A stretch of DNA of 61,178 nt from Acidimicrobiales bacterium. Lineage in GTDB: Bacteria; Actinomycetota; Acidimicrobiia; Acidimicrobiales; SZUA-35. Location of the stretch: NCBI GenBank assembly GCA_038212405.1, contig JBBQUN010000002.1, positions 1 to 61,178 on the forward strand, in the 5' to 3' direction. Positions 240-19,889 of the stretch are shown one piece after another. Position 1 is the first letter of the stretch. Every line of letters begins with the position of its first letter. The position numbers and the translations under genes were made by a program. The notes under the pieces are model-generated. The model saw nothing but the letters and a program-made list of their open reading frames with translations. It ran no database searches and was not told the DNA's origin.

Positions 240-319
240 CCGCGAGCGGTTCGGCCAACCAAATGGAGAATGACATGTCAAATCCGCCGCGGGTTGGGCC
301 TACCTTCAACATGGCCTAG
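149..319 (+). CDS. Lasso-peptide precursor A1 (56 aa)
   Basis: Not in the ORF track because it is under 60 aa. ATG 149 follows an AAGGTGGA Shine-Dalgarno; stop is TAG 317-319. Translation: MRGLESKSDEVSKRTYQSPKLEVLGSVSALTA / SGSANQMENDMSNPPRVGPTFNMA. The leader fits YxxPxLxxxGxxxxxTx exactly (Y16 to T31, Thr at -2). Core Ser1..Glu8 allows an 8-residue macrolactam. Third-position G/C bias supports this frame. Confidence 0.8.
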   Translation: MRGLESKSDEVSKRTYQSPKLEVLGSVSALTASGSANQMENDMSNPPRVGPTFNMA

Positions 320-373: not shown

Positions 374-985
374 TTGGTTATCAACATGTTGGGCAACTTG
401 AGTGTGCACGGAGCTGCAGTTGTCGTTAGCCGAAGGGCTTTGGTCTTTCTCGCCCCTTCCGGATGGGGAAAGTCGACCATTGCGGCTGCATTTCATCGTC
501 GCGGGTTCGAGATTCTGACTGACGATCGGTTGCGGCTCGAGGTCACGGCCGAAGGTCAACTTGTGGCAACCCCGATCGATCGCTGCCTGAGGTTGTGGCC
601 CGAAACCGCTTCGCAACTCATGCCGGGCGGGGCCTTCGCTGCAGTCACGGGCGAGAAGCATCGGTTGGAACTGGACATTGCAGGCAACCGATCGGCTGGG
701 CAGTCGGTGGCCGCAATCTTCACGTTGGGGAGCCCATGCTCGACTGTTTCATGCGAGTTCCGGCCGCTCTCGGCGTCGGTAGCGGTGGCGACGCTTGTCG
801 CGAACTGTTTCCGGCCCGATCCATACGACGCTGACACCGTTCAGCAAATCTTCCAAGCTTGCGTCGAGGTTGTGAACGTCGTGCCCGTCATCGAGCTCGA
901 CTACAAACGTGATCTGGCGTCGCTCGATCATGTGCATGGACGCGTGCTCGAATACGTCGATGCGCTGCTGGGGGCAACTCCCTGA
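374..985 (+). CDS. HPr-kinase-like (HprK C-terminal domain family) putative peptide kinase, copy 1
   Basis: 203-aa ORF (TTG 374, or ATG 386). Motif pattern: SVHGAAVVV..ALVFLAPSGWGKSTIAAAF..G..ILTDD (P-loop GxxGxGKST followed by DD). It starts 55 nt downstream of precursor A1 on the same strand. Confidence 0.8.
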   Translation: MVINMLGNLSVHGAAVVVSRRALVFLAPSGWGKSTIAAAFHRRGFEILTDDRLRLEVTAEGQLVATPIDRCLRLWPETASQLMPGGAFAAVTGEKHRLELDIAGNRSAGQSVAAIFTLGSPCSTVSCEFRPLSASVAVATLVANCFRPDPYDADTVQQIFQACVEVVNVVPVIELDYKRDLASLDHVHGRVLEYVDALLGATP

Positions 986-989: not shown

Positions 990-1277
990 TCAGGAATGAG
1001 AAGACCCGTCAATTTCGAGCAAGCCATGCCCCATTAAGCTGCCGGCCAGTTCCAGAACATCTGAGTGGATCTGGTCGAGGGGGGCATCGAACTCGGCCTC
1101 GACGGCGGCGACGGCGGCGTCGACGGTGCCACCCTCCTGCCACACGCCGAACGCACACGCGGCAACAGGGTTGAGGCCGATGTAGGACTCCGACGCCATG
1201 TCGAGCAGCACGGTCTCGTCGGCCACGCGTCGGGCCGTCACCGAGTCTGGAATCCGAAATCGGGTTGTGCCGTCCAC
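990..1277 (-). CDS. PqqD-family RRE protein, copy 1 (candidate lasso B1)
   Basis: This is the C-terminal 95 codons of the 222-aa ORF 990..1658. GTG 1277 is preceded by GAAGGTGGAAC. Sequence RFRIPDSVTARRVADETVLLDMASESYIGLNPVAACAFGVWQEGGTVDAAVAAVEAEFDAPLDQIHSDVLELAGSLMGHGLLEI matches the PqqD pattern. The upstream part of the long ORF overlaps the methyltransferase start region and is rejected. Confidence 0.7.
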   Translation of the reverse strand: MDGTTRFRIPDSVTARRVADETVLLDMASESYIGLNPVAACAFGVWQEGGTVDAAVAAVEAEFDAPLDQIHSDVLELAGSLMGHGLLEIDGSSHS

Positions 1278-1322
1278 GTTCCACCTTCGATCGACGAGTG
1301 CGCCGAGGGTAGTGTGCCACCG

Positions 1323-2498
1323 ATGAGCCAGAGCGAGTTGACCGAGCACGCCTCGTACGTGGCCGACGAAGTGAAGGTCGAGGCCTACCGCCGAGCTCTC
1401 ACCAACCTGGTGAAGCCGGGTGACGTCGTGATCGACCTCGGGTGCGGCAGCGGACTGCTCGGACTCCTTGCGCTCGAAGCTGGGGCCGGGTGCGTCATCG
1501 CCGTCGACTCCGGACCGATCCTCGAGGTGGCCCGAGACACCTTCGCCGCCAACGGCGTGATCGATCGAGTGCGCTTCCACCGAGGCGACTCGTCCACACT
1601 CGGGCTGAGCGAACCGGCCGACGTGGTGGTGTGTGATCAGATCGGTGGGTTCGCCCACGAAGTCGGCCTCACCAAGGTCGTCCGTGATCTGTTCGATCGT
1701 GGGGTCGCGAAGCCCGACGCCATCGTCGTGCCCGGCGGCTTCGAACTGTTCGTTGCCCCGGTGGCGCTGACAGCGGGCGATCCTCTCACGCCGTGGTCCG
1801 ACAACTCGACCGGTTTCGACTTCTCGCCCTTCGGTCGTTCCGCCGCGAACACACCGTTCCGGCTGACGGTCGATGCCTCGTCATTGCTCGGACCCGGGGT
1901 GATGGCCTGGGAACTCGACGCAACCGACACGTCGGCGATCTCGTTCGAGCTCGACCTCCCGATTGCCCGCGGCGGCAGATTCACGGGCCTCGTCGGCTAC
2001 ATGCGGGCCCACCTCGACCGGCACAACGGTGTCGTGCTGACCAACGACCCGAACGACCCCGGGCGATTCCGGAGATGGCACCTCTACCACCCCCTGGCGA
2101 CACCCATCGACGTCGCAGCGGGGGAGCGGGTGCACGCTTCGTTCGTCATCAACCAGCTCGGTCAGATCACCAAGTGGACCGTCGAAGTCGCCGATCACCG
2201 GCAGTCGATGTCCTCGTTCATCGGCGACTTCATCGATCCACTCGTCATGTTCGACCCACCGGCGGAGCGGCTGCTCACACTCAACCGGCCGGGTTTGGCC
2301 CGCCGCACCGCTCTCGATGCAATCGGCGATGGTGTGCTGTTCCCCGAGCTCGTCGAGCGGTTGGCCGTCGAGTTCCCCGATCAGTTCCCTACGCCCGACG
2401 AAGCCCGGAGGTTCGTTCGCGATCTGATCGGGCGCTACTGCGAACCCGGTCAGGACGCAGTGTCGAGCCCGGATGGTCGCAAGGGGAGCAGCGGGTGA
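1323..2498 (+). CDS. Class I SAM-dependent methyltransferase with PRMT-like core and a PqqD-like C-terminal extension
   Basis: ATG 1323 lies inside ORF 1065..2498. Motif I is VIDLGCGSGLLGLLALEAGAGCVIAVD. The motif II / acidic-loop region ADVVVCDQIGGFAHEVG resembles the PRMT double-E loop, and VVPGGFELFVAPV follows as in PRMTs. The last ~75 aa (LTLNRPGLARRTALDAIGDGVLFPELVERLAVEFPDQFPTPDEARRFVRDLIGRY) have the PqqD/RRE pattern. Confidence 0.7.
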   Translation: MSQSELTEHASYVADEVKVEAYRRALTNLVKPGDVVIDLGCGSGLLGLLALEAGAGCVIAVDSGPILEVARDTFAANGVIDRVRFHRGDSSTLGLSEPADVVVCDQIGGFAHEVGLTKVVRDLFDRGVAKPDAIVVPGGFELFVAPVALTAGDPLTPWSDNSTGFDFSPFGRSAANTPFRLTVDASSLLGPGVMAWELDATDTSAISFELDLPIARGGRFTGLVGYMRAHLDRHNGVVLTNDPNDPGRFRRWHLYHPLATPIDVAAGERVHASFVINQLGQITKWTVEVADHRQSMSSFIGDFIDPLVMFDPPAERLLTLNRPGLARRTALDAIGDGVLFPELVERLAVEFPDQFPTPDEARRFVRDLIGRYCEPGQDAVSSPDGRKGSSG

Positions 2499-2920
2499 TC
2501 GAAGGGTGGATGCACGGCGGCAACGTCGATCGGCTCACCGATCGGAACGCCATCCAGCTCGACCCAGGCATGGGCCCGCCCGCCCGAACCAAACCCCGAT
2601 CCGGCCCCGAGCCACAGTCGAGGTGATCGGCCCGACGAGGCCAGCATCAGCCACACGAATTGGGAACGGGCGAGGCACGACGAATCGTGCCGCCCGATCA
2701 GATGCCCTGCCCGCTTGGCCGCTCGAGCGACCGCCTCGGCATCCGGGCGCAGGCGGCCCCGAGTGAGATCGATCGCGGCGAGGGTCGACACCGCCGTCGT
2801 CGTCCGGCGCAGTGACCAGCGATTGGCGAGATGCAGAACCGGCACGATCACGACCGCCAGCGTCGTCAGCACGATGTCCGACACGAGACTCGAGCGTTCG
2901 AAGGTCGAAGGACGCCGCAT
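2450..2920 (-). CDS. Lasso-peptide B2 leader peptidase (transglutaminase-like cysteine protease), copy 1
   Basis: 156 aa. It carries the Cys...His signature of lasso B2 proteins: SSCLARSQFVWLML ... GRAHAWVELDGVPIGEP. Its 3' end overlaps the converging methyltransferase gene by 49 nt. Confidence 0.8.
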   Translation of the reverse strand: MRRPSTFERSSLVSDIVLTTLAVVIVPVLHLANRWSLRRTTTAVSTLAAIDLTRGRLRPDAEAVARAAKRAGHLIGRHDSSCLARSQFVWLMLASSGRSPRLWLGAGSGFGSGGRAHAWVELDGVPIGEPIDVAAVHPPFDHPLLPLRPSGLDTAS

Positions 2921-3027
2921 CGGTTCAGTGTGGTTCCCCGGCGATCGGTCTGCACCTTCGTCGAGAGCGCAGCGGTCGAATGACCCACGTCGTTGTGACT
3001 GGGCCGGCGGTGCACCATCATGACGGC

Positions 3028-4731
3028 ATGAGGCGTGTCCTGGTCACCGCATTCCAGGTCACGTTTGCTTCCGCTCGCCGGCTGGTCGTCGTCTCCTTTG
3101 CGCTCGAAGTCGTCTCGGCGCTGGCGCTCGCCGTCCAGCTGTACCTGTTGTCGGTGTTGCTGCGCCGGGTGCTCGACACGGCGACTCCGTTCGATCGACT
3201 CGGTCTCGTGGTCTGGCCACTCTTGGGGGTCGTCGCCACGTTCCTCCTGAGCCGGGTGGCATCGGCCATCGTGCGGGAACTGCGGTGGACGATTTCCGAA
3301 ACGGTCGCCGCCGACATCGAACGGGGTGTCATCGCCAGAGCGGCCGCCGCACCGCTGATCGAGTTCGACGACCCCGAGTTCCACAACCGCATCGAACGAT
3401 GCCGCAACGATGCCGCAGACCAGGTGTGGATGGTCGTCTCGGGCTTCGTTGGGCTCACCCGAGGGCTGCTGTCGTCGATTGCGGTCGCCGTCGTGATGGC
3501 GAGCATCGCCATCGAGCTCCTTTTCATCGGTGCGCTGGCGTTGGTTCCGACCGCGCTCACGCTGTCGCTGGTCTCTCGTCGACGCTACGCCCTCTACACC
3601 GATCTGACGGAGAACCAGCGGGAGCGCGGCTACCTGGTCGATCTCCTCACACAGCGTGCCGGCGCCAAGGAAGCCCGCATCTACCGGACGGCGTGGTCGC
3701 TTCGACCGCGATACGACGCGCTGGTCACGAGCCGCATCGCGCAGCTCCGAGCCGACACACGCCGCCGGGTCGTGCTCATCGCCGCAGGCGACGTGATGGC
3801 CGTCGTCATTCTCACGGTCGCCTTGCTGGTCGCCCTCGGCTTCGTAGCCGACGGTCGCATCAGCACCAGTGACGGTGGTGTCGCCGTGGCTGCGCTGTTC
3901 CAGCTCGTCGGATTGCTCACCGCAGCGGGTTCGGGCGCCGCGTCACTGAGGGGATCCTCCTTCCACGTCGCCGACTACCAGGCCTTCATCGACGGCGCCC
4001 CACCTGCCCCCGAGCTGGAAAGGGGCGGCACATTCGAGACGCTCGAGTTCCGAGACGTGTCGTTCACCTACCCCGGTCGTGATCGGTCGGTCTTCCCGCC
4101 GCTGTCCTTCACACTGCGCCGGGGTGACCTGCTCCTCGTCCGCGGGCCCAACGGGTCTGGCAAGAGCACCCTCGTTGCCATGCTGTGTGGGCTGCTCGAA
4201 CCGAGCGAGGGCATGATCGTGCTCGACGGTGAACCTGTCGACGACCCCACCGAACTCGCACGACGGTGTTCATTGCTGTTTCAGGACTTCATCCGTTTCG
4301 AACTCGAGCTCGGGCACGGCATCGGCATCGAAGACCAGCAACCGGACCCGGCGCGACTGGCGTCCGCGCTCGAACGATCAAGAAGCGAAACGATCGTCGA
4401 CGCCTTTCCCGACGGCGTCCATCAGCGCCTCGGTCGCACCTTCGCCAGCGGCCAGGAGCTCTCGGGTGGGCAGTGGCAGCGGCTCGCGCTGGCCCGAGCC
4501 CTCTACCATCCGACCACCCCGGTGCTCGTTCTCGACGAGCCGACATCCATGCAGGACCGTGACAACACCGAGGTCATCCACGGCCTGATTCGCCGATTGA
4601 GCGGGGAACGGACGGTCGTTCTCGTCTCGCATCGAGACGTTGGCGAACTCCAAGCCGATCTCACCATCGAACTCGGTGTCGACGGTACCCGGGCTCGAAT
4701 GATCGAGAACGATCGGGGCGGGACGGCATGA
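3028..4731 (+). CDS. ABC transporter, fused permease/ATPase (lasso-type exporter), copy 1
   Basis: The N-terminal TM region is followed by Walker A GPNGSGKST, ABC signature LSGGQWQRLALARAL and Walker B VLVLDEPTS. I prefer start ATG 3028 (or 2980). The ORF-track start at 2812 overlaps the divergent B2 gene. Confidence 0.85.
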   Translation: MRRVLVTAFQVTFASARRLVVVSFALEVVSALALAVQLYLLSVLLRRVLDTATPFDRLGLVVWPLLGVVATFLLSRVASAIVRELRWTISETVAADIERGVIARAAAAPLIEFDDPEFHNRIERCRNDAADQVWMVVSGFVGLTRGLLSSIAVAVVMASIAIELLFIGALALVPTALTLSLVSRRRYALYTDLTENQRERGYLVDLLTQRAGAKEARIYRTAWSLRPRYDALVTSRIAQLRADTRRRVVLIAAGDVMAVVILTVALLVALGFVADGRISTSDGGVAVAALFQLVGLLTAAGSGAASLRGSSFHVADYQAFIDGAPPAPELERGGTFETLEFRDVSFTYPGRDRSVFPPLSFTLRRGDLLLVRGPNGSGKSTLVAMLCGLLEPSEGMIVLDGEPVDDPTELARRCSLLFQDFIRFELELGHGIGIEDQQPDPARLASALERSRSETIVDAFPDGVHQRLGRTFASGQELSGGQWQRLALARALYHPTTPVLVLDEPTSMQDRDNTEVIHGLIRRLSGERTVVLVSHRDVGELQADLTIELGVDGTRARMIENDRGGTA

Positions 4732-5509: not shown

Positions 5510-5794
5510 TCATTCGTTGGAGACCACCGCACCGAGATCGACGAGGTCGGCCATCACCTGTTCCATGTCGCTTCGGACAACATCGAGCGTGACATCAAAG
5601 ATCTCGACCAGTTCCTCCGCCAATTGCTCGACCGACACCGGTCGCTCGAGAGACGACCACACGATCGCCATCGGCGCTCCGAAGTGATTGACCTGGTCTT
5701 GCCCCGGTGGAATGAGAGCGACACCCTCGAGGACACGACGCCACAACACGTCGACCCGTCGTTGATACAACGGCGGTGCGTCTCGCTCAGTCAT
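5510..5794 (-). CDS. PqqD-family RRE protein, copy 2
   Basis: Start at MTERDAPPLYQRRVDVLWRRVLEGVALIPPG..VSVEQLAEELVEIFDVTLDVVRSDMEQVMADLVDLGAVV (PqqD pattern). Its ATG overlaps the stop of the upstream nucleotidyltransferase gene by 8 nt. Confidence 0.7.
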   Translation of the reverse strand: MTERDAPPLYQRRVDVLWRRVLEGVALIPPGQDQVNHFGAPMAIVWSSLERPVSVEQLAEELVEIFDVTLDVVRSDMEQVMADLVDLGAVVSNE

Positions 5795-6959
5795 CGAGCT
5801 GACCCCGTAGCTGCCTGACAGCTCGGCGAAGGTGACCTCGCTCGGTCCAACCTCGACTCTCGAGGTACTCCGGGCTGGGCCTGACGAGGGCATGAAGGTA
5901 CCGAGCCCGAGTCCGGACGCCGGGAATCACTGCCAGGGACGCGAACTGCGGCCAGTAGCCGCGTCCCTGGGTCGTGTAGCTACGAAGGAAGAGGACTTGG
6001 CGCCACGGCACCGACACGTCTGCGAGCCGTCGGATCGGATGATCGTCGGCCAGATCGAACGCCGCGATCGTTTCGACGGCGGCACGCCGGATCACGGCCT
6101 GGGCCTGCCAACGCCCACCCATCTCGATCAGGTCGTCCAGATGTTCGGGCCACCGTTCGACCAACAGCATCAAATCGCGCAACGAACCGAGCCGTGGCGG
6201 ATGGTTGCCGAGCGCCGCATCGAAGCATCCATGGATCAGCAGCCCCGTCGGGGTCAGCGTCGGGAGGGCTGTCCCGCCAATCGAGAAAATGTCAGATCCC
6301 AGGAAGAGTTCCTCGGGATCCATCGTCAGACCAAAGGGGCCCCGAGCGAACGTTCGGTGCACATCGACCTCGAGATCATCGACGCGGATCGTCACGTCTT
6401 TCGCGAACTCGAGATCGAAGCCAGTACGAACCTGGGCCTCTGGGCGAACACCGTCGAGATCGGACAGCAGGACCCGGATCGCTTCGTCGAGGTCATCGGA
6501 TCGGATGAGGATGTCGAGATCGACGAAGATCCGGTGTGATGGCTCCCCATACAGAAAATGGGCGAGTGCCACACCTTTCAGCATTCGGAAAGGAATGCTT
6601 GCCGAACCGAGCGCAGCAGCAACACGAAGGGTGGTCCGCTCCAGACGGAGCGAATGCGAGAGCCAGATGAGCAGCCGGTCGGACAAGCGGTCCATCAGGT
6701 CGTCGTCGAGTTCCCATTCCCCCCGCTCGATCGCGTCGCCGAGCGCGCCAAGGGTGCGGCTCCGTTCACACCGGTCGAGCAATTCGTCGAACTCGGCTGC
6801 GGTGAACTTCGCCGGTGGCTCGGGTACACCGCCTTGCAGTGGCATGGCGGCGATTGCGAGGAGCAGGCGATCGAGATCAGACCGCGCTGCGGGCGATCGT
6901 GTTCCTCGGATGGTCGAGGCGCCCATCCGGTCGATCATACTCGTGTCAATTGGGACCAC
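5787..6959 (-). CDS. Nucleotidyltransferase family protein (NTP_transf_5-like), copy 1
   Basis: 390 aa. Signature FRMLKGVALAHFLYGEPSHRIFVDLDILIRSDDLDEAIRVL (KG..a...Y....R...D.D.L), as in the uncharacterised nucleotidyltransferase family found in lasso clusters. Confidence 0.75.
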   Translation of the reverse strand: MVPIDTSMIDRMGASTIRGTRSPAARSDLDRLLLAIAAMPLQGGVPEPPAKFTAAEFDELLDRCERSRTLGALGDAIERGEWELDDDLMDRLSDRLLIWLSHSLRLERTTLRVAAALGSASIPFRMLKGVALAHFLYGEPSHRIFVDLDILIRSDDLDEAIRVLLSDLDGVRPEAQVRTGFDLEFAKDVTIRVDDLEVDVHRTFARGPFGLTMDPEELFLGSDIFSIGGTALPTLTPTGLLIHGCFDAALGNHPPRLGSLRDLMLLVERWPEHLDDLIEMGGRWQAQAVIRRAAVETIAAFDLADDHPIRRLADVSVPWRQVLFLRSYTTQGRGYWPQFASLAVIPGVRTRARYLHALVRPSPEYLESRGWTERGHLRRAVRQLRGQLDD

Positions 6960-7010
6960 TCCTCAGACTCGCCTCGGACCAGCGAGTCCTGCCACCGACA
7001 TCACAACGGC

Positions 7011-7928
7011 TCAGAAGAGTTCGAGCGATCCGAGGCTGAGCGCCAGGTTGTCCAAGCTGGGCGTGTTCGCATTGGCGAGTGTCCGCCATGTGAGTCTCGG
7101 GCCCAGTGGTGGTGCGGGCACGAATCCGTCTCGGAGGCCGAGACCGGCACCGATGGCCACGTCCGCTCGTGCCTCTCGGAGTAGCGAACCGATCGGCAGC
7201 GACGGAGCAAACACATCGCAGATCGAGAGTTCTCGCACCGAACCCCGAGTGCGCAACCGCACCACGGCTTCATCGGTGAACCGGTAGCCAAGAGGAGAGA
7301 AGCCGTAGCGCCAAGCCAGGTAGTCAGCCGAGATGGGCGTATGCCACCCGCTCGGAGGGTTCCACCTGTCGGCCAGGGCGGCAAGGTCAGGCGAGTCGGT
7401 TCCGATGCCCGACGGTTCGCCCCACTTGCCAGCGGCGACTCTGCTTCGAAGCAGTCGTGGCAGGGCGGTGGCGCTGCGAGGCCGTACGGCGATCGGTGCC
7501 CGCCCGACATCGGTCCAGCCCATCTTCAGATAGCCGGGCCGAGACTGATCGTTCGGCGTGTTGAAAACGCCATCGAAGCCCTCGGCCGTCAAGCTCTCCA
7601 CTGCTGCCCTCGTGAGCTTCGTGAATATGCCCTTGCCCTGATGCGAGGGCAGTGTTGCGGTGTCGACGGCACGAACCATCTGGAGCGTTTGAGCTCCACG
7701 TGCGAGCTGCCAACGCATCATCACCCGCACGCCGACGATGTCATCGTGATCGACAGCGACCCAGATCGGCGAGGGCCCGAAGTGATTGTCGCGATGCTTC
7801 CACCGAAAGAAGTCGACGTTGGGGTCGCCCGGCTTCCAGCCGAGAGCAGCGCCACAGCAAGCGACAACTGCCTCGAACTCGTGGTCTTCGGCTTGTCGGA
7901 TCTCAACGTCGTCGGTCACGACCACCAT
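7011..7928 (-). CDS. GNAT-family N-acetyltransferase
   Basis: 305 aa. The acetyl-CoA binding region reads MVRAVDTATLPSHQGKGIFTKLTRAAVESL (Q/RxxGxG/A motif). It lies on the same strand upstream of nucleotidyltransferase 1. Confidence 0.7.
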   Translation of the reverse strand: MVVVTDDVEIRQAEDHEFEAVVACCGAALGWKPGDPNVDFFRWKHRDNHFGPSPIWVAVDHDDIVGVRVMMRWQLARGAQTLQMVRAVDTATLPSHQGKGIFTKLTRAAVESLTAEGFDGVFNTPNDQSRPGYLKMGWTDVGRAPIAVRPRSATALPRLLRSRVAAGKWGEPSGIGTDSPDLAALADRWNPPSGWHTPISADYLAWRYGFSPLGYRFTDEAVVRLRTRGSVRELSICDVFAPSLPIGSLLREARADVAIGAGLGLRDGFVPAPPLGPRLTWRTLANANTPSLDNLALSLGSLELF

Positions 7929-8064
7929 TCTCGCAGCAGACGAGGCAACCCTGCTCGCGTTGAGGTTCTCGTTCCGGTGCGGTTACGAGCAGAGCAAGCC
8001 ATGCCCTCGGTGCCAGCTCACTCGCTACCGGCGAAGCGAACCTCGAGCTGCATGTAGGGGATTC

Positions 8065-8616
8065 CTAGATCGGGGTACAGACCGCTACGTCGTCGTCGTC
8101 GGTACAGATGACGGTGAATCGGAACTGCGAGCTGGCGTTGCCACTCGACTTCAGCACGGTCGGCACGCTGATCGACACCGTGCCACCGGCGGGGTTGATT
8201 ACGGTATTCGTGGCAATCACCGAGCCGGCGCCGTTCCCCCCGGCCCGCTGGTAAATGCGGAGAATACAGCTGGCGTTCACGAAGCCAGTGGTGACGGTGA
8301 TGGTCGAGACCCCGTCTGCGCAGATACCGGAGGTCGTGACACCGGTAAGCCCATTCAAGTTTGCCATCAGCTTGGTGATCGTTGTGGTTTCGCTTGCGCC
8401 GCTGCCACAACTTCCTCCCTGATTGCTGGGCTCCCATGTCGAGTCGAACGACTGCACGGTGCCACTGCACACAGCGGCGTAGGCCGGACTGGTTCCGAGG
8501 ATTCCGACCCCGGGACCTGCCCATGCTGCAACGCCGACACCGGTTGCAACACCGAGTTTGAGTATCGACCGGCGGTCGGTCTGCTTCGCGTTCGATGACT
8601 CTGTCATTTCGTCCAC
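8065..8616 (-). CDS. Tat-signal secreted protein with six Cys, unknown function
   Basis: The N-terminus has the twin-arginine motif TDRRSILKLGVATGVGVAAWA and a likely AYA cleavage site. The mature part of about 135 aa is Thr/Ser/Gly-rich and beta-like, with 6 Cys. I recognise no family motif. Confidence 0.6.
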   Translation of the reverse strand: MDEMTESSNAKQTDRRSILKLGVATGVGVAAWAGPGVGILGTSPAYAAVCSGTVQSFDSTWEPSNQGGSCGSGASETTTITKLMANLNGLTGVTTSGICADGVSTITVTTGFVNASCILRIYQRAGGNGAGSVIATNTVINPAGGTVSISVPTVLKSSGNASSQFRFTVICTDDDDVAVCTPI

Positions 8617-8706
8617 CCCAGATTCTCCCGCCAGGCACAGCCACCTAGAGTGGCAAAGCTACTGCAGGAACAGTGGGGATGCAACGATCGGCTAGCGTCA
8701 AGCACA

Positions 8707-8994
8707 ATGACTCATGAGTATCGGCGAGTTGCCTCGCCATTTCGAGCGATCGACTCGATGGTCCTCGTCTACAGCCCCTCGCAACAAGAGGTCGTGGTTC
8801 TCTCTGAACTCGCCGCAGCAGTGTGGCAGCTGCTCGAAGTACCGCGAAGCAGCGAGCAGCTTGTCGCAGCAATCGACGGCGGCGGCATCGCCGGCCCCAC
8901 TACGCAGAGCGTCGGGTTGGTGCTCAATACCATCAAGTCCCAAGTCGATGGCGCGTTGAGGAACCTTCGGAAGGTCGGACTTGTCCACCCGTGA
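8707..8994 (+). CDS. PqqD-family RRE protein, copy 3
   Basis: ATG 8707 lies inside ORF 8650..8994. Sequence: MTHEYRRVASPFRAIDSMVLVYSPSQQEVVVLSELAAAVWQLLEVPRSSEQLVAAID...ALRNLRKVGLV. Its 3' end overlaps the next gene by 14 nt. Confidence 0.65.
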   Translation: MTHEYRRVASPFRAIDSMVLVYSPSQQEVVVLSELAAAVWQLLEVPRSSEQLVAAIDGGGIAGPTTQSVGLVLNTIKSQVDGALRNLRKVGLVHP

Positions 8995-10060
8995 ACAGCT
9001 CTTCGCCCTGGCGGCTCGAGCGGCGGTAGGTCATGTTGACCTGCCGATCTCGATCGATGACGCTGCGATACCGGCAATCGTCGCGCTGGCAGGAAACGAG
9101 CGGTTGCTGCCGCTCGCCGCTCACGGGTTGCAGCACCTTCCCGACGAGTGGAAGCCCGACGGCTGGGACGAGCTCGTGTTTGCAACAGCTCGTGATGCGG
9201 TCCTCATCGAGGCGAGCATGCTCGAAGCGCACGGCCTCTTGAGCGCCGACGGCATTCGGGTCATGGCGATCAAAGGCATCGCCACTGCGCATCTCGACTA
9301 CGACGACCCTGGTCTGCGCCAGGTCGGCGACGGCGATATCCTCGTCCCGTACCAGCAGCATCTCGATGCCATCGACATCTTGAGCGGTGCCGGATGGATT
9401 GCGCCATCGGCAACGCTGCCGAGTCACCGCGACGCAGTGCACGCCGTTCCGATGCGAGGCCCACTCGGCCGAGACGTCGACGTTCACCAGCATCTCGCGC
9501 CACGAGCGCTCGGTGTGCTTCTGGATCAAGCCGATTTTTTCGCCCACGCAACGACCTTCGAGTTGGGCGACACCCGACTCGGGGCGCCATCGGTGGCCCA
9601 TCGCCTCCTCCACGCCGCCGTGCATTACGAGGCATCGCCGGGTCGTTACAAGCGACTCTCCGGGCTGGTCGATGTCCTCTTGATAGCCCACCGTCACGCG
9701 GTCAACTCAAGCGAACTATGTGCGACCGCCGACGAGTTGGGATTGAGGTTCCTCCTCGAGCGTGCTCTGCGGCGAGCGTCGGCACTCAGCGGGCTCGCCC
9801 TGCCCGCCGAATGGGTCGACGCATTTGCTCGTCCGTGCGCAAAGCCGGATCGGCTCCTCGTCGCCGCTTACAACGGCGAGACACGGCGACCGGTACTTGA
9901 AGAACTGGCGTACATACGACTCGCCGGCGGTCCGGTCGACAAGGTCCGTTACCTCTCGGGCTACTTTCGAACCGATGCCGCCTACCGGGAACGATTCCAG
10001 CGAGGCGGGCTGTGGTCACAAGCTCGCTACCTGGCTTCTCGTGTGCGATCACGGTCTTGA
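8981..10060 (+). CDS. Nucleotidyltransferase family protein (NTP_transf_5-like), copy 2
   Basis: 359 aa with a TTG start. Signature VMAIKGIATAHLDYDDPGLRQVGDGDILVPYQQHLDAIDIL. Confidence 0.75.
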   Translation: MSTREQLFALAARAAVGHVDLPISIDDAAIPAIVALAGNERLLPLAAHGLQHLPDEWKPDGWDELVFATARDAVLIEASMLEAHGLLSADGIRVMAIKGIATAHLDYDDPGLRQVGDGDILVPYQQHLDAIDILSGAGWIAPSATLPSHRDAVHAVPMRGPLGRDVDVHQHLAPRALGVLLDQADFFAHATTFELGDTRLGAPSVAHRLLHAAVHYEASPGRYKRLSGLVDVLLIAHRHAVNSSELCATADELGLRFLLERALRRASALSGLALPAEWVDAFARPCAKPDRLLVAAYNGETRRPVLEELAYIRLAGGPVDKVRYLSGYFRTDAAYRERFQRGGLWSQARYLASRVRSRS

Positions 10061-10717
10061 ACCCGAGTTCGGGCGGAGCGCACCGTAGAGGTCCGGACCG
10101 AACTCGACCAGCGGTTCGAGCAGTGTCGCTGCGTCGATGCGGTGCTGGTGATCGCCATTGCTGATGCGCCTGGCGATGAGCCATATCCGTTGAGCCAGCG
10201 ATGCCGGGGCAGACAAAGGCACACCGGTGAGCAGCACGATCCTCGTCAACTCCAGATCGAGTCGGTGGAGTCTCATGTTCGGGTCGATGTCGAGCACGGT
10301 CGTCGGAAGCAACGCTGCACCCAACGAGGCCAGTCGACGCTCCGACGCCACGAAGTCCGATCCCACGGGCTCGAACCCCACGGCTCGATCACGCCACCGA
10401 ACCGAGCGCATCGCCAGCCTCGCATCAGGAGGTTGCGGCGGATCGGCGAGAACGTGCTCGACCAGCGATGCGAGCGTCATCCCGGCAGCAACGGCGTCTC
10501 GTTCCCTGGCTACCACGCGCCCGCGCCAGTCGAGGATCAAGAGCATCGCTGAGCGGCCGGATCCCGATCGCTGTACCGCGAAGGCGGTGAAGGCATCGTC
10601 ATCGATTCGTGGCGTCGCCTGCCCCTCGAGCCATATGGGTGCAGCCGTGTCGAACACTGCCGGATCCTCCGACACGACCTTGAGCGAGCCATTGGCGAGC
10701 TCGATTCGTTGCTGCAT
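10049..10717 (-). CDS. Hypothetical protein (last gene of the HprK2-PqqD4 operon)
   Basis: 222-aa ORF with good third-position bias and no recognisable motif. It starts 27 nt downstream of PqqD copy 4. Its 3' end overlaps converging nucleotidyltransferase 2 by 12 nt. Confidence 0.45.
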   Translation of the reverse strand: MQQRIELANGSLKVVSEDPAVFDTAAPIWLEGQATPRIDDDAFTAFAVQRSGSGRSAMLLILDWRGRVVARERDAVAAGMTLASLVEHVLADPPQPPDARLAMRSVRWRDRAVGFEPVGSDFVASERRLASLGAALLPTTVLDIDPNMRLHRLDLELTRIVLLTGVPLSAPASLAQRIWLIARRISNGDHQHRIDAATLLEPLVEFGPDLYGALRPNSGSRP

Positions 10718-10744
10718 GGACCCGACCGGGCCCTTCGCCAGCAG

Positions 10745-11095
10745 TCAAGGACTCGGCGGGTCGAAGAACGTCGGGTTGTCGGGCCACGCCCCTTCGATCG
10801 TTTCAGCGTCGGCGAGCAGACCTTCGAGACGGAGGAGTTGCTCCACACGAAGAACCTCGCCGATCGCCACATCTCTCATCACTCCTACCTCGGCGACGAC
10901 ATCGTTGACGAGGTCGCCCATTTGTCCTTCGCCGTCGAAGCAACGGGCGAGGATGGATGCGACAGGATCGAGAAGGACGGGCGCCGGTCGATTCGACGCC
11001 CACGCGATCGACTCGGTGTCGAACGCGCGCACCAGCACGTCCGTTGCCAACGTTGGAACAGCTCGATCCTCGAAGTTCGGTTTTCGGCGGTTCAT
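10745..11095 (-). CDS. PqqD-family RRE protein, copy 4
   Basis: 116 aa. Sequence ..VLLDPVASILARCFDGEGQMGDLVNDVAEVGVMRDVAIGEVLRVEQLLRLEGLL.. fits the PqqD pattern. It has an ATGA start/stop overlap with the upstream kinase gene (11092-11095). Confidence 0.6.
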   Translation of the reverse strand: MNRRKPNFEDRAVPTLATDVLVRAFDTESIAWASNRPAPVLLDPVASILARCFDGEGQMGDLVNDVVAEVGVMRDVAIGEVLRVEQLLRLEGLLADAETIEGAWPDNPTFFDPPSP

Positions 11096-12261
11096 CCTGT
11101 GCGCAATCCCTTCTGCTCGAGTTCGACGAGGAGTCGCTCTGTCCGTTCATCGGCCCCGCCGTCGCAGAACCTGACCCAATCACGTGTATGTTCCGCGTCG
11201 AGCGCAACGAACTGCATCGACGAGTCGATGAGGAGACTCGCCCCATCGATCTCGAGCATCGAGACACCCGCAGTTCGGCCGGTGGTCGAGGCCGCTCGCC
11301 ATTGGAGGGCTCCCGGGCGTCTCGGGCCAGACAGGTGGATCTCGAGCGCTTTCTCCACCGATTCGAGTGCACCTGAGCGAAGACGGATTGCGGTAGCCGC
11401 AGCCAAGAGACGACCGAGTGACAGCACACCGCCGAGGCCGGCGCGCTCAGCGTCCATCACGTGGTCCCGCATCACCTCGACCAACGCATCGATTGGGTGC
11501 GCGATCGACAGCTCCAAAGAATCAACACTGCCGGGCCCCGGTTGGAGTAGCACGATCAGCCCAACCGGGTGGTCATCGGCGCTGACGCGTCCCAGTGCAG
11601 AAGCTCGAACGAGTCGGCCCGCCCCGTGCTGTCGGATGGGAAGACCGTGATCGGCAAGTGTCGGCAGCAGATCGAGGGTGCCGGAGCGAAGGGCGACGGG
11701 TTTCGGGTAGGTCGAGATCTGCGGACTGTCCGAATCGATCGCCACCATCTCGTCCGACAGATAGCACCAGCCGGACTGGAGAAGGTGAGCGGACAGCGTC
11801 GACTTTCCCGTGCGCCGCTTGCCGAGCACCAGAGCGGCGGCGCCGCCACGAGCAAGCGCGGCGGCGTGAAGATGCATTCGCCCCTCATCAGATGCCAAGG
11901 AAAGGCGATTCACCTCTCGCGCAACAGCCCAGAGCGCGTCGGCAATCGAATCGACTTGACGCCAACACCCGTCGAACAAATCGACCATGACGGCCGAGTC
12001 GGCGACGTCGATCGTGGCCGTCGCCAACGGTTGCCGACTCATTGTGTCGGGGTGGCTCACGAGGTCACCGAATACGGCGATCGCCACCTCGACCACCGCT
12101 TGGTCGTTCGACGCAATCTCGAAGACGAACGCGGTCGACGCAAATGCCGGTGTGCGGCTCGGCCGGCTGTCAGGGGGCCTCATGGACCCAGCAATCGCTC
12201 GCAATAGTGTGCGACCATCGATGTCCCTGGCCGGTAGGTCCGAGCCCGGTCGCACGCACAA
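11092..12261 (-). CDS. HPr-kinase-like putative peptide kinase, copy 2 (long form)
   Basis: 389 aa. Motif pattern: LHAAALARGGAAALVLGKRRTGKSTLSAHLLQSGWCYLSDEMVAID (P-loop plus acidic pair). Confidence 0.75.
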   Translation of the reverse strand: MCVRPGSDLPARDIDGRTLLRAIAGSMRPPDSRPSRTPAFASTAFVFEIASNDQAVVEVAIAVFGDLVSHPDTMSRQPLATATIDVADSAVMVDLFDGCWRQVDSIADALWAVAREVNRLSLASDEGRMHLHAAALARGGAAALVLGKRRTGKSTLSAHLLQSGWCYLSDEMVAIDSDSPQISTYPKPVALRSGTLDLLPTLADHGLPIRQHGAGRLVRASALGRVSADDHPVGLIVLLQPGPGSVDSLELSIAHPIDALVEVMRDHVMDAERAGLGGVLSLGRLLAAATAIRLRSGALESVEKALEIHLSGPRRPGALQWRAASTTGRTAGVSMLEIDGASLLIDSSMQFVALDAEHTRDWVRFCDGGADERTERLLVELEQKGLRTG

Positions 12262-12268
12262 TCACCCG

Positions 12269-12871
12269 TCACAGCCGTCGACGAGACGCCATGAGTCCAC
12301 CGTACGTCCCAACCTCGGGGTACTCCATACCCGTATCCATACCCGTATCCCCTCTGGCGTCGAAGCGAAGACCCTCACCGCAGGCGTCGACCTTGCTGCG
12401 CTCGGATCGCGAGGCCGGCCCGCCTTCGGTCAAATCGATCACGTCGGGGAGGTGAACCATGGTCGAGCGGGTTCCTGCGCGATGAGTCGGCACCGTTGAT
12501 ATCCAGCCACTGCGGCCGGCGGGTCGGAGGGAGACCGACCCGATAGCCAGATCGAACACCAACAATGGCAGGAGTCGACGGGGAAACTGGAGCGGCACAC
12601 CACGTGTCGGTGTTCGTCCGAGCCACCCGATTCGATGGTCGCCGAGGGCGGGTTGCGTGGCAGCAATGCGGTGATAGCGGCCGATAGCCCTCAGGATGAT
12701 CACGATCGGCACAAGTAGCCAACCGGCGACGATGAGGCCGGCGGCGGCCACGGCAGCGTCGAAGACCGTCCAGAACGGCTTCGGTCGAGAGGGTGGAGTC
12801 TCCGCATGGGCGCGCAGCGTTATGACGACGCGGTCAGATACCTTTTGGGCTTGGTCTGGGCTCGGTTGCAC
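12269..12871 (-). CDS. Hypothetical membrane-anchored protein
   Basis: 200 aa with one clear hydrophobic helix (AAVAAAGLIVAGWLLVPIVIIL). It lies 7 nt upstream of kinase copy 2. It contains an in-frame 12-bp perfect tandem duplication (12326-12349, encoding DTGMDTGM). Confidence 0.45.
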   Translation of the reverse strand: MQPSPDQAQKVSDRVVITLRAHAETPPSRPKPFWTVFDAAVAAAGLIVAGWLLVPIVIILRAIGRYHRIAATQPALGDHRIGWLGRTPTRGVPLQFPRRLLPLLVFDLAIGSVSLRPAGRSGWISTVPTHRAGTRSTMVHLPDVIDLTEGGPASRSERSKVDACGEGLRFDARGDTGMDTGMEYPEVGTYGGLMASRRRL

Positions 12872-13123: not shown

Positions 13124-13279
13124 ATGTCTATGAACTACGAATCACCATCAATCCGTGAGCTCGGCCGAATCGCCGAACTCACGCTTGGCCAAAACGGAAC
13201 ATCACTCGACGGCAATCGGTCGTACACGCAAACGGGTGGCGGCAACAATGAGGACGATCCGACGGACGACACGCCCTGA
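13124..13279 (+). CDS. Lasso-peptide precursor A2 (51 aa)
   Basis: ATG 13124 sits 3 nt after GGAGGG; the track shows a longer TTG-started 71-aa version. Translation: MSMNYESPSIRELGRIAELTL / GQNGTSLDGNRSYTQTGGGNNEDDPTDDTP. The leader fits YxxPxIxxxGxxxxxTx with the same spacing as A1. Core Gly1..Asp8 allows an 8-residue macrolactam. Confidence 0.8.
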   Translation: MSMNYESPSIRELGRIAELTLGQNGTSLDGNRSYTQTGGGNNEDDPTDDTP

Positions 13280-13287: not shown

Positions 13288-14982
13288 TCATGTGGCTCTG
13301 AGCCAACGATCGATCGAGACTAGCGAAGATGCCGGGATCACTGATCCCGGCATCTTCGCTTTTGCCGCATCGACGAGTCGATCCACCGCCTCGCCATCGA
13401 CCTCAGCAAGCTCGCGTACCGGGCCGTGTCGCGCCAACTCCAGCGTCCCCCCGGGCAGAGAAGCCCACGCCGTCGCCGAAAACTCGGCCTTCGTGGTGCG
13501 ATTACGGACGTTCTCGGGCAGCCGAGGACCAAAGGCAACGCGTTGGAGTGAGCGATCGGCGCCACACCTCCTCGGCCAGCCGGGAGGGAGACCGTAGGTC
13601 GCTTCGATGAGATCGATATCGAAGAAGGGGTGCGTGAGTCTGATGTCGAGGGGATCGGTGACGACGGCGAGGTCCTCCAATAGCCGAGTGATCCACCCAT
13701 CTCGAAGCATCTCGGACCGCCGGTCGATCGCGGGGTCACTCGTGTCACGGACCGCCGGACCGATCACCCGGCGCTCGATGCCGAGGTCTCGGCGGTACGC
13801 CGGCTCGAGCAGCGACAAGCCGAACGACGCGCTTCGTCGGCGCCACGCCAGCTCGGCGACCACCGGTCGTACCAGCAGGGGCCAGGTGGCTCGAGGGTGA
13901 GCGGTGATCCACCGGCCAAGCCGAGCGAGTTCCGCACGGTCGCCGGTACGAAGGGCGGAGAGAACTCGAGGGCCGACGAGTTGTGCGCCGAACGCATCGT
14001 CACCCCCCAAACCCGTGACCACCGTGGTGGCGCCCTGTTCTCGAAAACCGGAATGCAGCGATCGAGCCATCAAGCCGTTCGGTGGTGGAGGCGGTACTCG
14101 CCACTCAGCTACGAAAACATCGAGCCACGCCGGGCCGGCGAGAAACGGCGGAGCGTCGAGCAGCGGAAGGCCAAGGTGTCGGGCGACGGCATCGGAGTAC
14201 TTCCGCTCGTCCGCACGTTCGTCGTCGAAGACGATCCGGCCCAGGATCATGGCATCGGTCATCGAACTCGCGGTTGCCGCGACACTCGACGAGTCGAGTC
14301 CGCCGCTCACCTCGAATGCGGTCGTCTCGCCGATCGCCAGCCGCATGCGCACGGCGTCGTCGAGCAGGGAGCGGACTTCCTCGATGGCCTTCTCCCAGGA
14401 GATCGATCGTCGCTGGATCCGGGGTCGACGGGTTGCGCGGACCGATGGGATCGCGCTGCTGGGGACGGTGAGGGCGGTGCCCGGCAAGAGCCGCGTCACA
14501 CCGAGGTGGACGGTTCGGTCCTCGTGGCCGAGCGGGCCGGCCAGCATCTCGGCGATCGTGTGATGATCGGGACGTCGATCCACCCACGAGTTGGCGAGGA
14601 TGTCTCGTTGGAGGGGACTGGCGACCATTCGACCGCTGCCGGCAGCGAAGAAGCAGGGGCGAGCGCCGATCGGGTCTCGGGCAATCGTGATCGTCTCGGC
14701 GCGCCGGTCGGCGACGATCAGAACGAAGTCGCCCTTGATCGACTCGAGCCACGCACGTCGCCCGCAGACGCTCGACACCCAGGTGGCGTCGTCCGACGCA
14801 GCACCCGTCCGATGGATCGAACCGTCGACCAGAACCCATCGCTCGTCGTCCGCCGCAACATGAATCCATTTCGATGTCGAACGCCACGCAATGGTGGCCC
14901 AGCCGAGATCGATCGTTTCGTCGAGCCCGTCGGGAATGCGGTGCGTCCGGTCAGGTCCGACCTGGACGTACCAATCGCTCAT
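13288..14982 (-). CDS. Lasso-peptide cyclase (asparagine synthetase B-like, lasso C)
   Basis: Start MSDWYVQVGPD at 14982, an ATGA overlap with the B2 stop. The PP-loop motif is FEVSGGLDSSSVAA. The N-terminal glutaminase-like domain lacks the N-terminal Cys, as in lasso cyclases. This is the only such gene in the window. Confidence 0.85.
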   Translation of the reverse strand: MSDWYVQVGPDRTHRIPDGLDETIDLGWATIAWRSTSKWIHVAADDERWVLVDGSIHRTGAASDDATWVSSVCGRRAWLESIKGDFVLIVADRRAETITIARDPIGARPCFFAAGSGRMVASPLQRDILANSWVDRRPDHHTIAEMLAGPLGHEDRTVHLGVTRLLPGTALTVPSSAIPSVRATRRPRIQRRSISWEKAIEEVRSLLDDAVRMRLAIGETTAFEVSGGLDSSSVAATASSMTDAMILGRIVFDDERADERKYSDAVARHLGLPLLDAPPFLAGPAWLDVFVAEWRVPPPPPNGLMARSLHSGFREQGATTVVTGLGGDDAFGAQLVGPRVLSALRTGDRAELARLGRWITAHPRATWPLLVRPVVAELAWRRRSASFGLSLLEPAYRRDLGIERRVIGPAVRDTSDPAIDRRSEMLRDGWITRLLEDLAVVTDPLDIRLTHPFFDIDLIEATYGLPPGWPRRCGADRSLQRVAFGPRLPENVRNRTTKAEFSATAWASLPGGTLELARHGPVRELAEVDGEAVDRLVDAAKAKMPGSVIPASSLVSIDRWLRAT

Positions 14983-15440
14983 CGCAGATCCGATGGCAAC
15001 GTACCCAGGTCGGCGCCCGTCGCAATCACCGTGTAGCTGCCAACTGCTTCCGGATCGTCGTTGACCACGGTCGTACCGATCTGGACCCATGCGTGGGCTT
15101 CGACGCTGCCGGAAGTGTTTCGAACTCCGATGACCAGCTCGGCAGCGCTGCCGTGGCGTTCCAATTCGCGCAGTAGCGTCACGGAACGTCGCAGACAGGT
15201 CGGGTGCAGCGGCAGCAACGCGAACGCGCCGTCAATCCGCTCGGCCAGCTCGACGCCCTTGGCGGTCGTGCCGGGCGGCAGGGTCTCGTCGAGCTTCTCG
15301 AGGATCGGGCGCAGGCCTCCGCGCCGTAGCTCGAGCGACGTGCGGCCGGCCCTCCACGCCAACCGGAGCGTCTGCCGGTCGACGAAGGCTGCTGCGATCA
15401 GCGCCCGGAGAGTGGCAGGCAGCCCTGCCTCAGCTCCCAA
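14979..15440 (-). CDS. Lasso-peptide B2 leader peptidase (transglutaminase-like), copy 2
   Basis: 153 aa. Signature PTCLRRSVTLLRELERHG...GSVEAHAWVQIGTTVVND (Cys/His). Confidence 0.85.
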   Translation of the reverse strand: MGAEAGLPATLRALIAAAFVDRQTLRLAWRAGRTSLELRRGGLRPILEKLDETLPPGTTAKGVELAERIDGAFALLPLHPTCLRRSVTLLRELERHGSAAELVIGVRNTSGSVEAHAWVQIGTTVVNDDPEAVGSYTVIATGADLGTLPSDLR

Positions 15441-15690
15441 TCGCGAGTCCTCTCGCCAGTAACTCGGCGACGAGTTTGTCGAAGTCGGCGGCGAGGCGTT
15501 CCGGGTCGACGTCGGGAAAGCGCCCGGTGATGGTCGCGAGCGCTGTTTGACGATCGACGTGGGTCGTTCCGACTTCCCACATGAAGGCCGCAGTCGAGTT
15601 CAGTTCGAGATACATCTCGTTGTTGGAATCGAGTACGACCATCTCGTTGTTCACTCGCCGGGCAAAAACGCCTCTCGGTGCCGAAATCAT
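15430..15690 (-). CDS. PqqD-family RRE protein, copy 5 (lasso B1 of the C/B2 operon)
   Basis: Sequence: MISAPRGVFARRVNNEMVVLDSNNEMYLELNSTAAFMWEVGTTHVDRQTALATITGRFPDVDPERLAADFDKLVAELLARGLAI. ATG 15690 lies 8 nt after GGAGGGA; the maximal ORF reaches 15729. It overlaps the B2 start by 11 nt. Confidence 0.75.
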   Translation of the reverse strand: MISAPRGVFARRVNNEMVVLDSNNEMYLELNSTAAFMWEVGTTHVDRQTALATITGRFPDVDPERLAADFDKLVAELLARGLAIGS

Positions 15691-15768
15691 CGTTGTTCCC
15701 TCCATGTCTCCACCCGTCGGCCGTTTCACCCATCCATCAAGGAGTCACATGCCAGTATTCTCCGCCCT

Positions 15769-19802: not shown

Positions 19803-19889
19803 GACCCCTCCCTCCGAGCGAGCTTAGGGTTCCACCGATGTTTGGTACATGGGCATCGATCCCACCTCGATGCCGGTACAGGAGTGTGG

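Follow-up and report, generated by a model that had tools for sequence, protein, structure and literature searches.

Lasso peptides owe their diversity to tailoring enzymes, and only a short list of lasso modifications is known. The methyltransferases described from lasso clusters include StspM and LasF, which are C-terminal O-methyltransferases, and TceM and LihM, PIMT-type enzymes that O-methylate Asp to give an aspartimide; StspM acts on the leader-bearing precursor (PMC9266682, PMC11285071). LopH is the putative Met S-methyltransferase of longipeptin A and a precedent for lasso peptides that carry a sulfonium (PMC10664482). Here we describe a methyltransferase gene from a lasso locus of an Acidimicrobiales bacterium, located near the start of a 61,178-nucleotide stretch of contig JBBQUN010000002.1 (the window). 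An original prediction, made from the sequence alone, had read its product as a protein arginine methyltransferase (PRMT)-like enzyme with a PqqD-like tail and had proposed that it methylates the one Arg in each of two predicted lasso cores, A1 and A2. Our analysis suggests, with a probability of about one half, that the product is an S-adenosylmethionine (SAM)-dependent peptide methyltransferase tailoring the lasso precursor, that its tail is a cut-down recognition element (RRE) of the kind found in pathways to peptides that are made by the ribosome and modified after translation (RiPPs), and that its acceptor is not Arg as a rule and is most likely sulfur.

Fold and active-site motifs of the methyltransferase

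Translation of the plus-strand open reading frame (ORF) at 1323 to 2498 contained every motif on which the prediction had been built: VIDLGCGSG (residues 36 to 44), CDQIGGFAHE (104 to 113), VVPGGFELFVAPV (134 to 146), and the quoted tail sequence. The ORF list also allows a longer reading from a GTG at 1065. We chose the ATG at 1323 because the N termini of the homologues line up at M1 (MS.SEL.EH). At the other end of the protein, about the last 16 residues of the extension at 373 to 391 had no counterpart in the aligned homologues.

The best sequence matches in the PDB were PRMT6, PRMT3, PRMT1, PRMT8, and CARM1 (phmmer, E = 6e-18). At the residue level, CDQIG-GFAHE paired with SEWMGYGLLHE and VVPGGFELFVAPV paired with LLPASAELFVAPI. 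A profile built from 40 homologues matched the PRMTs of the PDB across residues 2 to 278 with an E value of 1e-42. An AlphaFold2 model of the full-length protein, with a mean predicted local distance difference test score (pLDDT) of 91 and a predicted TM-score (pTM) of 0.78, was then compared with the PDB by Foldseek, and the best 50 matches were all PRMT6, PRMT3, or CARM1 (best E = 8e-25). The target-normalized TM-score to PRMT3 and PRMT6 was ~0.8 over ~300 to 320 columns. Foldseek and the profile alignment also placed a C-terminal β-barrel against the Rossmann domain, as in the PRMT family. Motif I and the N-terminal H..D..R helix of PRMTs were both found and aligned to PRMT6 and PRMT1; among the 40 homologues, H9, D15, D38, G42, G44, and S90 were invariant and position 18 was K or R.

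Domain databases were less specific. Pfam returned only generic Rossmann families, with PrmA first, plus Methyltransf_25, and a PRMT_C match (E = 0.003, residues 142 to 277) that lay under the gathering score. An NCBIfam scan gave nothing over any curated cut-off. O-methyltransferase family 2 (PF00891) and PIMT (PF01135) had no match at E ≤ 1 among the Pfam matches or the best 25 NCBIfam matches. We considered and rejected identity with PrmA, since the Pfam match covers the Rossmann segment only and the TIGR00406 equivalog scored 45 bits, far under its cut-off of 183. A PRMT fold with an intact SAM site is strongly supported for the catalytic core by the alignments and the predicted structure. 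The proposal that the core is PRMT-like and not of the lasso O-methyltransferase or PIMT type was thus upheld: all of its sequence and structure neighbors in the PDB were PRMTs, and the Foldseek comparison that had been suggested as a check recovered the PRMT fold.

The motifs that hold the guanidinium group in PRMTs have nevertheless changed. At the first double-E position, D105 was invariant (40/40) and was followed by Q106 in 37/40 homologues; position 113 was E in 26/40 and D in 13/40. D105 and E/D113 are eight residues apart, while the PRMT glutamates are nine apart, so the loop is one residue shorter, and the canonical double-E loop of the PRMT family is not found in the lasso clade. The THW loop is also absent, its place being taken by R248-x-x-R251-W/R (R251 in 39/40 homologues, R248 in 33/40). 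Non-lasso bacterial PRMT-like proteins, whether tail-less or SEC-C-tailed, retain SE..EE and THW, and it is therefore specifically in the lasso-linked clade that both motifs are altered. Because the enzyme lacks the canonical forms of both, we refer to it as PRMT-fold and not as a PRMT. The acidic loop that had been predicted at the double-E position does align there, as CDQIGGFAHE, but its first Glu is D105, the loop is shortened, and the THW loop is gone. R251 may simply stand in for the structural His-Asp contact of the THW loop.

The lasso-linked family and its core peptides

The methyltransferase is a constant component of a large family of lasso gene clusters. We recovered 89 homologues, mostly of 377 to 398 amino acids, with 93 to 96% of the query length covered. 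A scan of one genome per species gave 80 loci, and ~85 to 86 loci, many of them truncated, were annotated with hidden Markov models built from the window proteins. Their hosts are Ilumatobacteraceae (59 to 61% identity; probably the lineage to which the window belongs), other Acidimicrobiia, Acidobacteriota, Nitrospira, Burkholderiales, Myxococcales, Methylomirabilota, and others, and all or nearly all of the genomes that carry the loci are metagenome-assembled. The closest full homologue found was 63% identical (locus L001). Of 86 loci with the methyltransferase, 77 also encoded a cyclase, 79 an HprK-like protein, 69 a PqqD protein, and 62 B2; the HprK-like gene was a direct neighbor of the methyltransferase gene in its 79 loci. 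The gene order was nearly constant, PqqD (B1)-B2-cyclase-precursor-methyltransferase-HprK-like kinase, often followed by NTP_transf_5, and the precursor usually ended <100 bp upstream of the methyltransferase gene. Two loci, L048 and L067, have two tandem methyltransferase genes each.

From ~85 methyltransferase-linked loci we extracted 83 nonredundant cores by means of a conserved leader motif, Y-x-x-P-x-L-x3-G-x5-L-T-x. The A1 leader, which ends in ...YQSPKLEVLGSVSALTA, carries this motif, common to the 83 related precursors. S1 and E8 of the A1 core fit the lasso precursor pattern (leader Thr at −2, N-terminal Gly or Ser, Asp or Glu at position 7 to 9), and an acidic residue at position 7 to 9 was present in 80/83 cores.

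Both window cores have, as had been noted, a single Arg (A1 R16 and A2 R11) and no Lys. One Arg in a core of 24 to 30 residues is unremarkable, since 42% of the related cores have Arg; Lys was found in 31% and either residue in 55%. Conversely, 48 of the 83 cores (58%) lack Arg, and 37 (45%) lack both Arg and Lys. Among the 62 cores that end within 300 bp of the methyltransferase gene, Arg occurred in 22, Arg or Lys in 32, and Met or Cys in 61. The core of L001, GASGPMADGASGMGMT, has neither Arg nor Lys. R16 and R11 were not kept in the nearest related cores (L007, L012, L020, and L011, whose core is GGPVSGMENMGDA), and the A2-type cores of L012 and L020, which belong to methyltransferase-bearing clusters, have Thr or Gly at the place of A2 R11. 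The tabulation of the 83 cores led us to reject Arg as a conserved acceptor, and Lys was set aside on its low frequency. A conserved enzyme cannot rely on a residue that is missing from most of its substrates, and the sequences therefore make Arg methylation unlikely as the function of the family. The proposed acceptor was the part of the original prediction that did not hold up, given the Arg-free cognate cores, the lack of conservation of R16 and R11, and the changed double-E and THW signatures.

The same cores are unusual in composition, at 22% Gly and 12% Met, and 49 of the 83 (59%) end in Cys-Leu. A metagenome scan with a cyclase profile recovered related kinase-bearing clusters that lack the methyltransferase, and these supplied 13 cores for comparison. 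Met made up 13.5% of the methyltransferase-adjacent cores versus 1.7% of the cores from methyltransferase-free clusters (Mann-Whitney P = 2e-5, uncorrected for phylogeny), and none of the 13 ended in Cys-Leu. Ser or Thr was present in 82/83 methyltransferase-linked cores, within the first seven residues in 81/83. Only 54/83 cores have Cys or Met in the penultimate position, and we therefore rejected this as a C-terminal motif common to all.

Some cores, from loci among L006 to L085, contain runs such as MMMMMMM and GMGMGMG that are reminiscent of Cu(I)-binding Met motifs. Many hosts of the Gly/Met-rich cores are Nitrospira and Acidobacteriota.

The C-terminal tail and the candidate acceptors

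In the full-length model, the tail forms three helices (residues 322 to 335, 340 to 350, and 358 to 372) with a pLDDT of >90, and a separate model of the tail alone gave the identical three helices and no strands. No β-strands were predicted in residues 298 to 321, and the three-stranded sheet that accompanies the three helices of the RRE fold was thus not found. The window's own tail had no Pfam match at E ≤ 1. When 27 homologous tails were searched, Pfam matched PqqD in 4 (best E = 0.011), PaaA-like_N, the RRE domain of PaaA, in 1 (E = 6e-4), PKMT_2nd, the C-terminal winged helix of PKMT, in 4, and HTH_47 in 6.

We compared a profile of 79 tails with a profile of the PqqD proteins from the same loci by hhalign. 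Default settings gave 24 aligned columns; a relaxed alignment with shuffle controls, which we used, gave 51 colinear columns (P = 0.007) and placed tail residues 319 to 374 on the end of β3 and on α1 to α3 of PqqD. Its score of 17.3 compares with a maximum of 12.3 among 40 column shuffles and the reversed profile, and 0/40 shuffles reached the real score. Foldseek with the model of the tail alone found no significant match; the lasso RRE TbiB1 with its leader (PDB 5v1u) ranked second, at a nonsignificant E value of 2.3 (TM-score 0.47, root mean square deviation 3.2 Å, 54 columns).

A search with the tail profile covered 1.84 billion representative proteins. At E ≤ 0.001 there were 1,359 matches, and at the stricter limit of E ≤ 1e-10 the tail was conserved in at least 366 50%-identity clusters. 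Nearly all of the top 150 matches, those listed, were full-length methyltransferases of ~375 to 385 amino acids or fragments, and no stand-alone RREs were among them. The search also returned P0172, in which PRMT_C, the tail, and an HPr-kinase domain form one protein (a methyltransferase-kinase fusion or a merged gene call), and P0090, a 2,076-residue repetitive HTH protein with 15 tail-like repeats that also scored as HxlR and as the PKMT winged helix. The tail is present in essentially all lasso-linked homologues and absent from the non-lasso relatives examined, P0026 (no tail domain) and P0081 (SEC-C tail, locus L087), neither of which lies in a lasso context.

Most likely, the tail is a winged-helix-type domain that derives from an RRE and has no β-sheet wing, a reading that the profile alignment and the models favor, though weakly. 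Its use as a built-in leader-recognition domain, which had been predicted, would be a reasonable inference from the same comparisons. The PqqD/RRE assignment thus survives in part: three helices of the winged-helix type and a weak colinear match to α1 to α3 were found, but a β-sheet and a Pfam match were not. A proposed structural check had the same mixed outcome, with the helices recovered and TbiB1 ranked second, but with no significance in Foldseek and no β wing.

In the function that we favor, the tail would hold the conserved leader, or a complex of B1 with the leader, and docking through the tail would let the core reach the active site before the leader is removed. The acceptor would as a rule not be Arg, in keeping with the remodeled guanidinium signatures (D105-Q106...E/D113, and R248-x-x-R251 for THW). 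Instead, a Met thioether would be converted to a sulfonium, or a Cys thiol would be methylated where the core ends in Cys-Leu. A sulfur atom is our leading guess because Met is extraordinarily abundant in the cognate cores and almost every one has Met or Cys; if so, the candidate sites in A1 would be M7, M11, and M23, ahead of R16. Chemical precedent comes from longipeptin A, a lasso peptide with S-methylated Met whose putative methyltransferase is unrelated (PMC10664482). A bolder version, which we offer only tentatively and consider rather doubtful in its entirety, is that a PRMT-fold enzyme has been recruited to a RiPP pathway and, guided by a mini-RRE, has switched from guanidino nitrogen to sulfur, making a Met sulfonium, a capped penultimate Cys, or both.

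Several points weigh against the sulfur-directed, tail-guided function. The cluster at L021 looks complete, and its core, GVNGSNNDPGQGNQTKRGNG, has neither Met nor Cys; this core and a few precursors far from the methyltransferase gene rule out a strictly universal sulfur acceptor. The correlation between Met and the methyltransferase may reflect no more than the shared ancestry of one clade. We know of no PRMT-fold enzyme that methylates sulfur, and the acidic D/E pair would suit an amine or a guanidine too. Statistically, the case for the tail as an RRE is weak, and the β3 strand that binds the leader is not predicted; in known RREs, the leader is bound by β-strands. Finally, the methyltransferase-side cluster has no cyclase of its own in the window. 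The contig starts 148 bp upstream of A1, which would account for the missing upstream cyclase expected from L001 and L002. When window bases 1 to 148 were searched by tblastn, with the cyclases of L001, L002, and L007 as queries, no significant match to a cyclase 3′ end appeared.

Other universal nucleophiles, namely, the C-terminal carboxylate, the ring Ser/Thr, and backbone nitrogen, are possible acceptors, and four other explanations have to be weighed against a sulfur acceptor. The enzyme could be a true peptidyl-arginine ω-N-methyltransferase that modifies A1 R16, and perhaps A2 R11, under the guidance of the RRE-like tail. The PRMT fold, the exclusively PRMT neighbors in the PDB, the acidic D105/E113 pair still at the double-E position, and the one Arg in each window core all fit, and with no Arg methylation of lasso peptides in the literature searched, the idea is not pre-empted by a known alternative. 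We nonetheless consider it unlikely. The methyltransferase is conserved in loci whose cores mostly lack Arg, and often Lys as well, among them L001, the locus of the closest full homologue found; neither R16 nor R11 recurs in the nearest cores; and in the lasso clade the Glu-to-Asp change, the shorter loop, and the missing THW have become fixed, while non-lasso relatives remain canonical. Methylation of a different nitrogen, in the manner of PrmA, would target the Lys ε-amine, a backbone amide, or the α-amine freed by leader removal. PrmA is, by name, the best Pfam and NCBIfam match (Pfam E = 1.6e-10), the acidic pocket fits an ammonium group, and core variability is no obstacle because backbone and terminal nitrogens occur in every core. 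But the confined, subthreshold nature of the PrmA match, the scarcity of Lys, the need for the α-amine in the macrolactam, and the different fold of known peptide backbone N-methyltransferases leave this explanation quite improbable.

A universal oxygen would escape the problem of variable cores as well, whether the C-terminal carboxylate (as with StspM and LasF), a ring Ser/Thr, or a phosphate installed by the kinase. Every core has a C terminus and nearly every one a Ser or Thr, typically early in the core; in nearly all loci the methyltransferase gene adjoins or overlaps the kinase gene, and P0172 reads as a fusion of the two; the conserved R248 and R251, close to the active site, could hold an anion; and C-terminal O-methylation of a linear precursor is an established lasso modification (PMC9266682). 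O-methylation is also unlikely in our view, however, because the enzyme does not resemble the O-methyltransferases or PIMT homologues of known lasso pathways, enzymes of the PRMT fold methylate nitrogen, and a carboxylate or phosphate would be expected to be repelled by the invariant Asp and the Glu. The enzyme might, last, not methylate a lasso peptide at all. Its substrate could be a small molecule (a free amino acid, for instance), another protein, or the surface glycan of the neighboring locus, or it could serve only as a scaffold. There is a parallel in SznE, a bacterial PRMT-like protein reported to methylate free arginine (cited in PMC12637814), and a large polysaccharide locus lies alongside in the window and at L001, L002, L004, and L086. 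This too is quite improbable, given that the gene directly follows the precursor inside a lasso operon in dozens of loci across phyla and that the winged-helix tail is restricted to the lasso-linked clade; the invariant SAM-binding residues count against a purely structural role.

Gene neighborhood and comparison with known systems

The features of the window are collected in Table 1. A lasso B1/B2 pair lies beside the methyltransferase, and a complete second set, B1-B2-C, occupies 13288 to 15744, with precursor A2 convergent to the cyclase. This A2-type convergent arrangement recurs in L012, L020, and L088, and in L012 and L020 the methyltransferase-kinase pair stands ahead of B2 and the cyclase. 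The window shares an unusual lasso layout with the Ilumatobacteraceae clade (L001, L002, and L007): B1 and B2 run on one strand, and the precursor, kinase, and methyltransferase genes on the other. The divergent starts of B1 and the methyltransferase gene are ~30 to 50 bp apart, and in the window the convergent ends of the methyltransferase gene and B2 overlap by 49 bp.

Further along, window positions 21500 to 53000 make up a surface-polysaccharide locus. Its genes encode two Polysacc_synt_2 dehydratases, a DegT aminotransferase, GT4 glycosyltransferases, a heparinase II/III-like protein, a Bac_transf-GT4 fusion, and a Wzz/ParA chain-length regulator. Polysaccharide-type genes likewise flank the homologous clusters at L001, L002, L004, and L086.

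Table 1. Positions of features in the window; "patch" marks members of a RiPP-type accessory patch at 5510-12871.
Feature	Position	Strand	Basis or remark
Lasso precursor A1, 56 amino acids	149..319	+	NCBIfam lasso_leader_L3 (NF033521), 20.4 bits (cut-off 19)
A1 core SGSANQMENDMSNPPRVGPTFNMA	245-316	+	Predicted S1-E8 ring; three Met, one Arg (R16), no Lys
HprK-related kinase-like protein	374..985	+	Pfam Hpr_kinase_C, E 2.5e-4; TIGR04352 HprK_rel_A, E 1e-8, below cut-off
Lasso B1 (PqqD/RRE)	990..1292	-	Pfam PqqD, E 8.6e-12; NCBIfam lasso_PqqD, E 3e-11; start approximate
Methyltransferase gene	1323..2498	+	Intact, 391 amino acids plus stop; direct translation
Predicted PRMT-fold catalytic core, residues 1-297	1323..2213	+	N-terminal helix pair, Rossmann SAM-binding domain, β-barrel
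SAM-binding motif I VIDLGCGSG, residues 36-44	1428..1454	+	Aligned to PRMT6 VLDVGAGTG
Double-E-position loop CDQIGGFAHE, residues 104-113	1632..1661	+	PRMT6/PRMT1 alignments, column counts
RFRRW at place of PRMT THW loop, residues 248-252	2064..2078	+	Profile alignment, column counts
Low-confidence linker, residues 298-317	2214..2273	+	pLDDT <50 for residues 304-312
C-terminal three-helix winged-helix-like tail, residues 318-372	2274..2438	+	AlphaFold2 model; read as truncated PqqD/RRE-like domain
C-terminal extension, residues 373-391	2439..2495	+	Overlaps 3′ end of convergent B2 gene
Lasso B2 leader peptidase	2450..2920	-	Transglut_core3, E 5.9e-11; NCBIfam lasso_biosyn_B2, 47 bits (cut-off 33)
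ABC transporter, probable exporter	3025..4731	+	ABC_tran, E 4e-24; ORF start possibly as early as 2812
PqqD-like gene	5510-5893	-	Patch
NTP_transf_5 gene	5787-6959	-	Patch
GNAT	7011-7928	-	Patch
ORF without family match	8065-8616	-	Patch
PqqD-like gene	8650-8994	+	Patch
NTP_transf_5 gene	8981-10060	+	Patch
ORF without family match	10049-10717	-	Patch
PqqD-like gene	10745-11095	-	Patch
Second HprK-related gene	11092-12261	-	Patch
ORF without family match	12269-12871	-	Patch
Second precursor A2	about 13124..13279	+	Leader motif YESPSIRELGRIAELTL
A2 core GQNGTSLDGNRSYTQTGGGNNEDDPTDDTP	13187-13276	+	One Arg (R11), no Lys
Second-set cyclase C	13288-15090	-	Asn_synthase, E 3.6e-24; only cyclase in window
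Second-set B2	14982 to about 15440	-	Transglut_core3, E 2.6e-21
Second-set B1	15433-15744	-	PqqD, E 1.6e-11
Second ABC transporter	15547-17556	+	
HTTM-domain membrane protein	17496-18416	-	
P-loop protein	18942-19802	-	
Third NTP_transf_5 gene	19893-20891	-	In stretch 17496-20942, after second ABC transporter

Literature searches that combined lasso peptides with arginine methyltransferase, methylarginine, PrmA/L11 methyltransferase, Nitrospira, or methionine-rich returned nothing relevant. In the literature searched, no PRMT-fold enzyme was described in a lasso or RiPP pathway, the RiPP/PRMT matches being dominated by unrelated papers, and no product was described for the HprK-kinase/methyltransferase lasso cluster family. 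The PRMT-fold methyltransferases of this family comprise at least several hundred sequence clusters, almost only from uncultured soil and water bacteria, including Nitrospira. Whichever candidate acceptor is right, it would add a new lasso modification and show how a PRMT active site can be repurposed, and the Gly/Met-rich, Cys-Leu-ending peptides could then be examined for function. If the switch to sulfur is real, these peptides would form a chemical class new among lasso peptides, with a possible link to metal (Cu(I)) binding; their clusters occur widely in uncultured Acidobacteriota, Nitrospirota, Acidimicrobiia, and other phyla. As a practical matter, mass spectrometry experiments should not be designed around arginine alone.

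Compared with the eukaryotic type I PRMTs (PRMT6, PRMT3, PRMT1, and CARM1), the lasso-linked enzyme shares the Rossmann domain, the β-barrel with a short arm, the N-terminal H..D..K/R helix, motif I, and the acidic loop after β4. It differs from them in D105-Q106, the shorter loop, R-x-x-R-W/R for THW, and the extra tail, as well as in its setting in a bacterial RiPP operon, where most cognate substrates lack Arg. Generic bacterial PRMT-like proteins (e.g., P0075 to P0082, often annotated as L11 methyltransferase) have a homologous core at 25 to 31% identity, but they keep SE..EE and THW and end in a SEC-C zinc motif, and the one context examined, that of P0081, was not beside lasso genes. With PrmA, the resemblance is confined to the Rossmann segment: PF06325 was the top Pfam match at 41 bits, but over only profile positions 154 to 233 of 296, and the PrmA substrate-recognition domain is absent, its place being taken by a β-barrel of the PRMT type. 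The tail is colinear with α1 to α3 of lasso RRE/PqqD proteins (B1, e.g., TbiB1), but the similarity is weak, the β1 to β3 sheet is missing, and the clusters still contain full-length B1 genes. Like StspM/LasF, TceM/LihM, and LopH, the enzyme would be a tailoring SAM enzyme encoded in a lasso cluster. Those enzymes are, respectively, mitomycin-O-methyltransferase-like, PIMT, and MTHFR-regulatory-domain-like, and all of them lack the PRMT fold as well as a fused winged-helix tail; LopH, which we had considered as a relative, was rejected because its fold is unrelated. Tailoring lasso methyltransferases as such are therefore already known, and what this locus appears to add is a PRMT-fold tailoring methyltransferase with a fused recognition-type domain in a lasso cluster.

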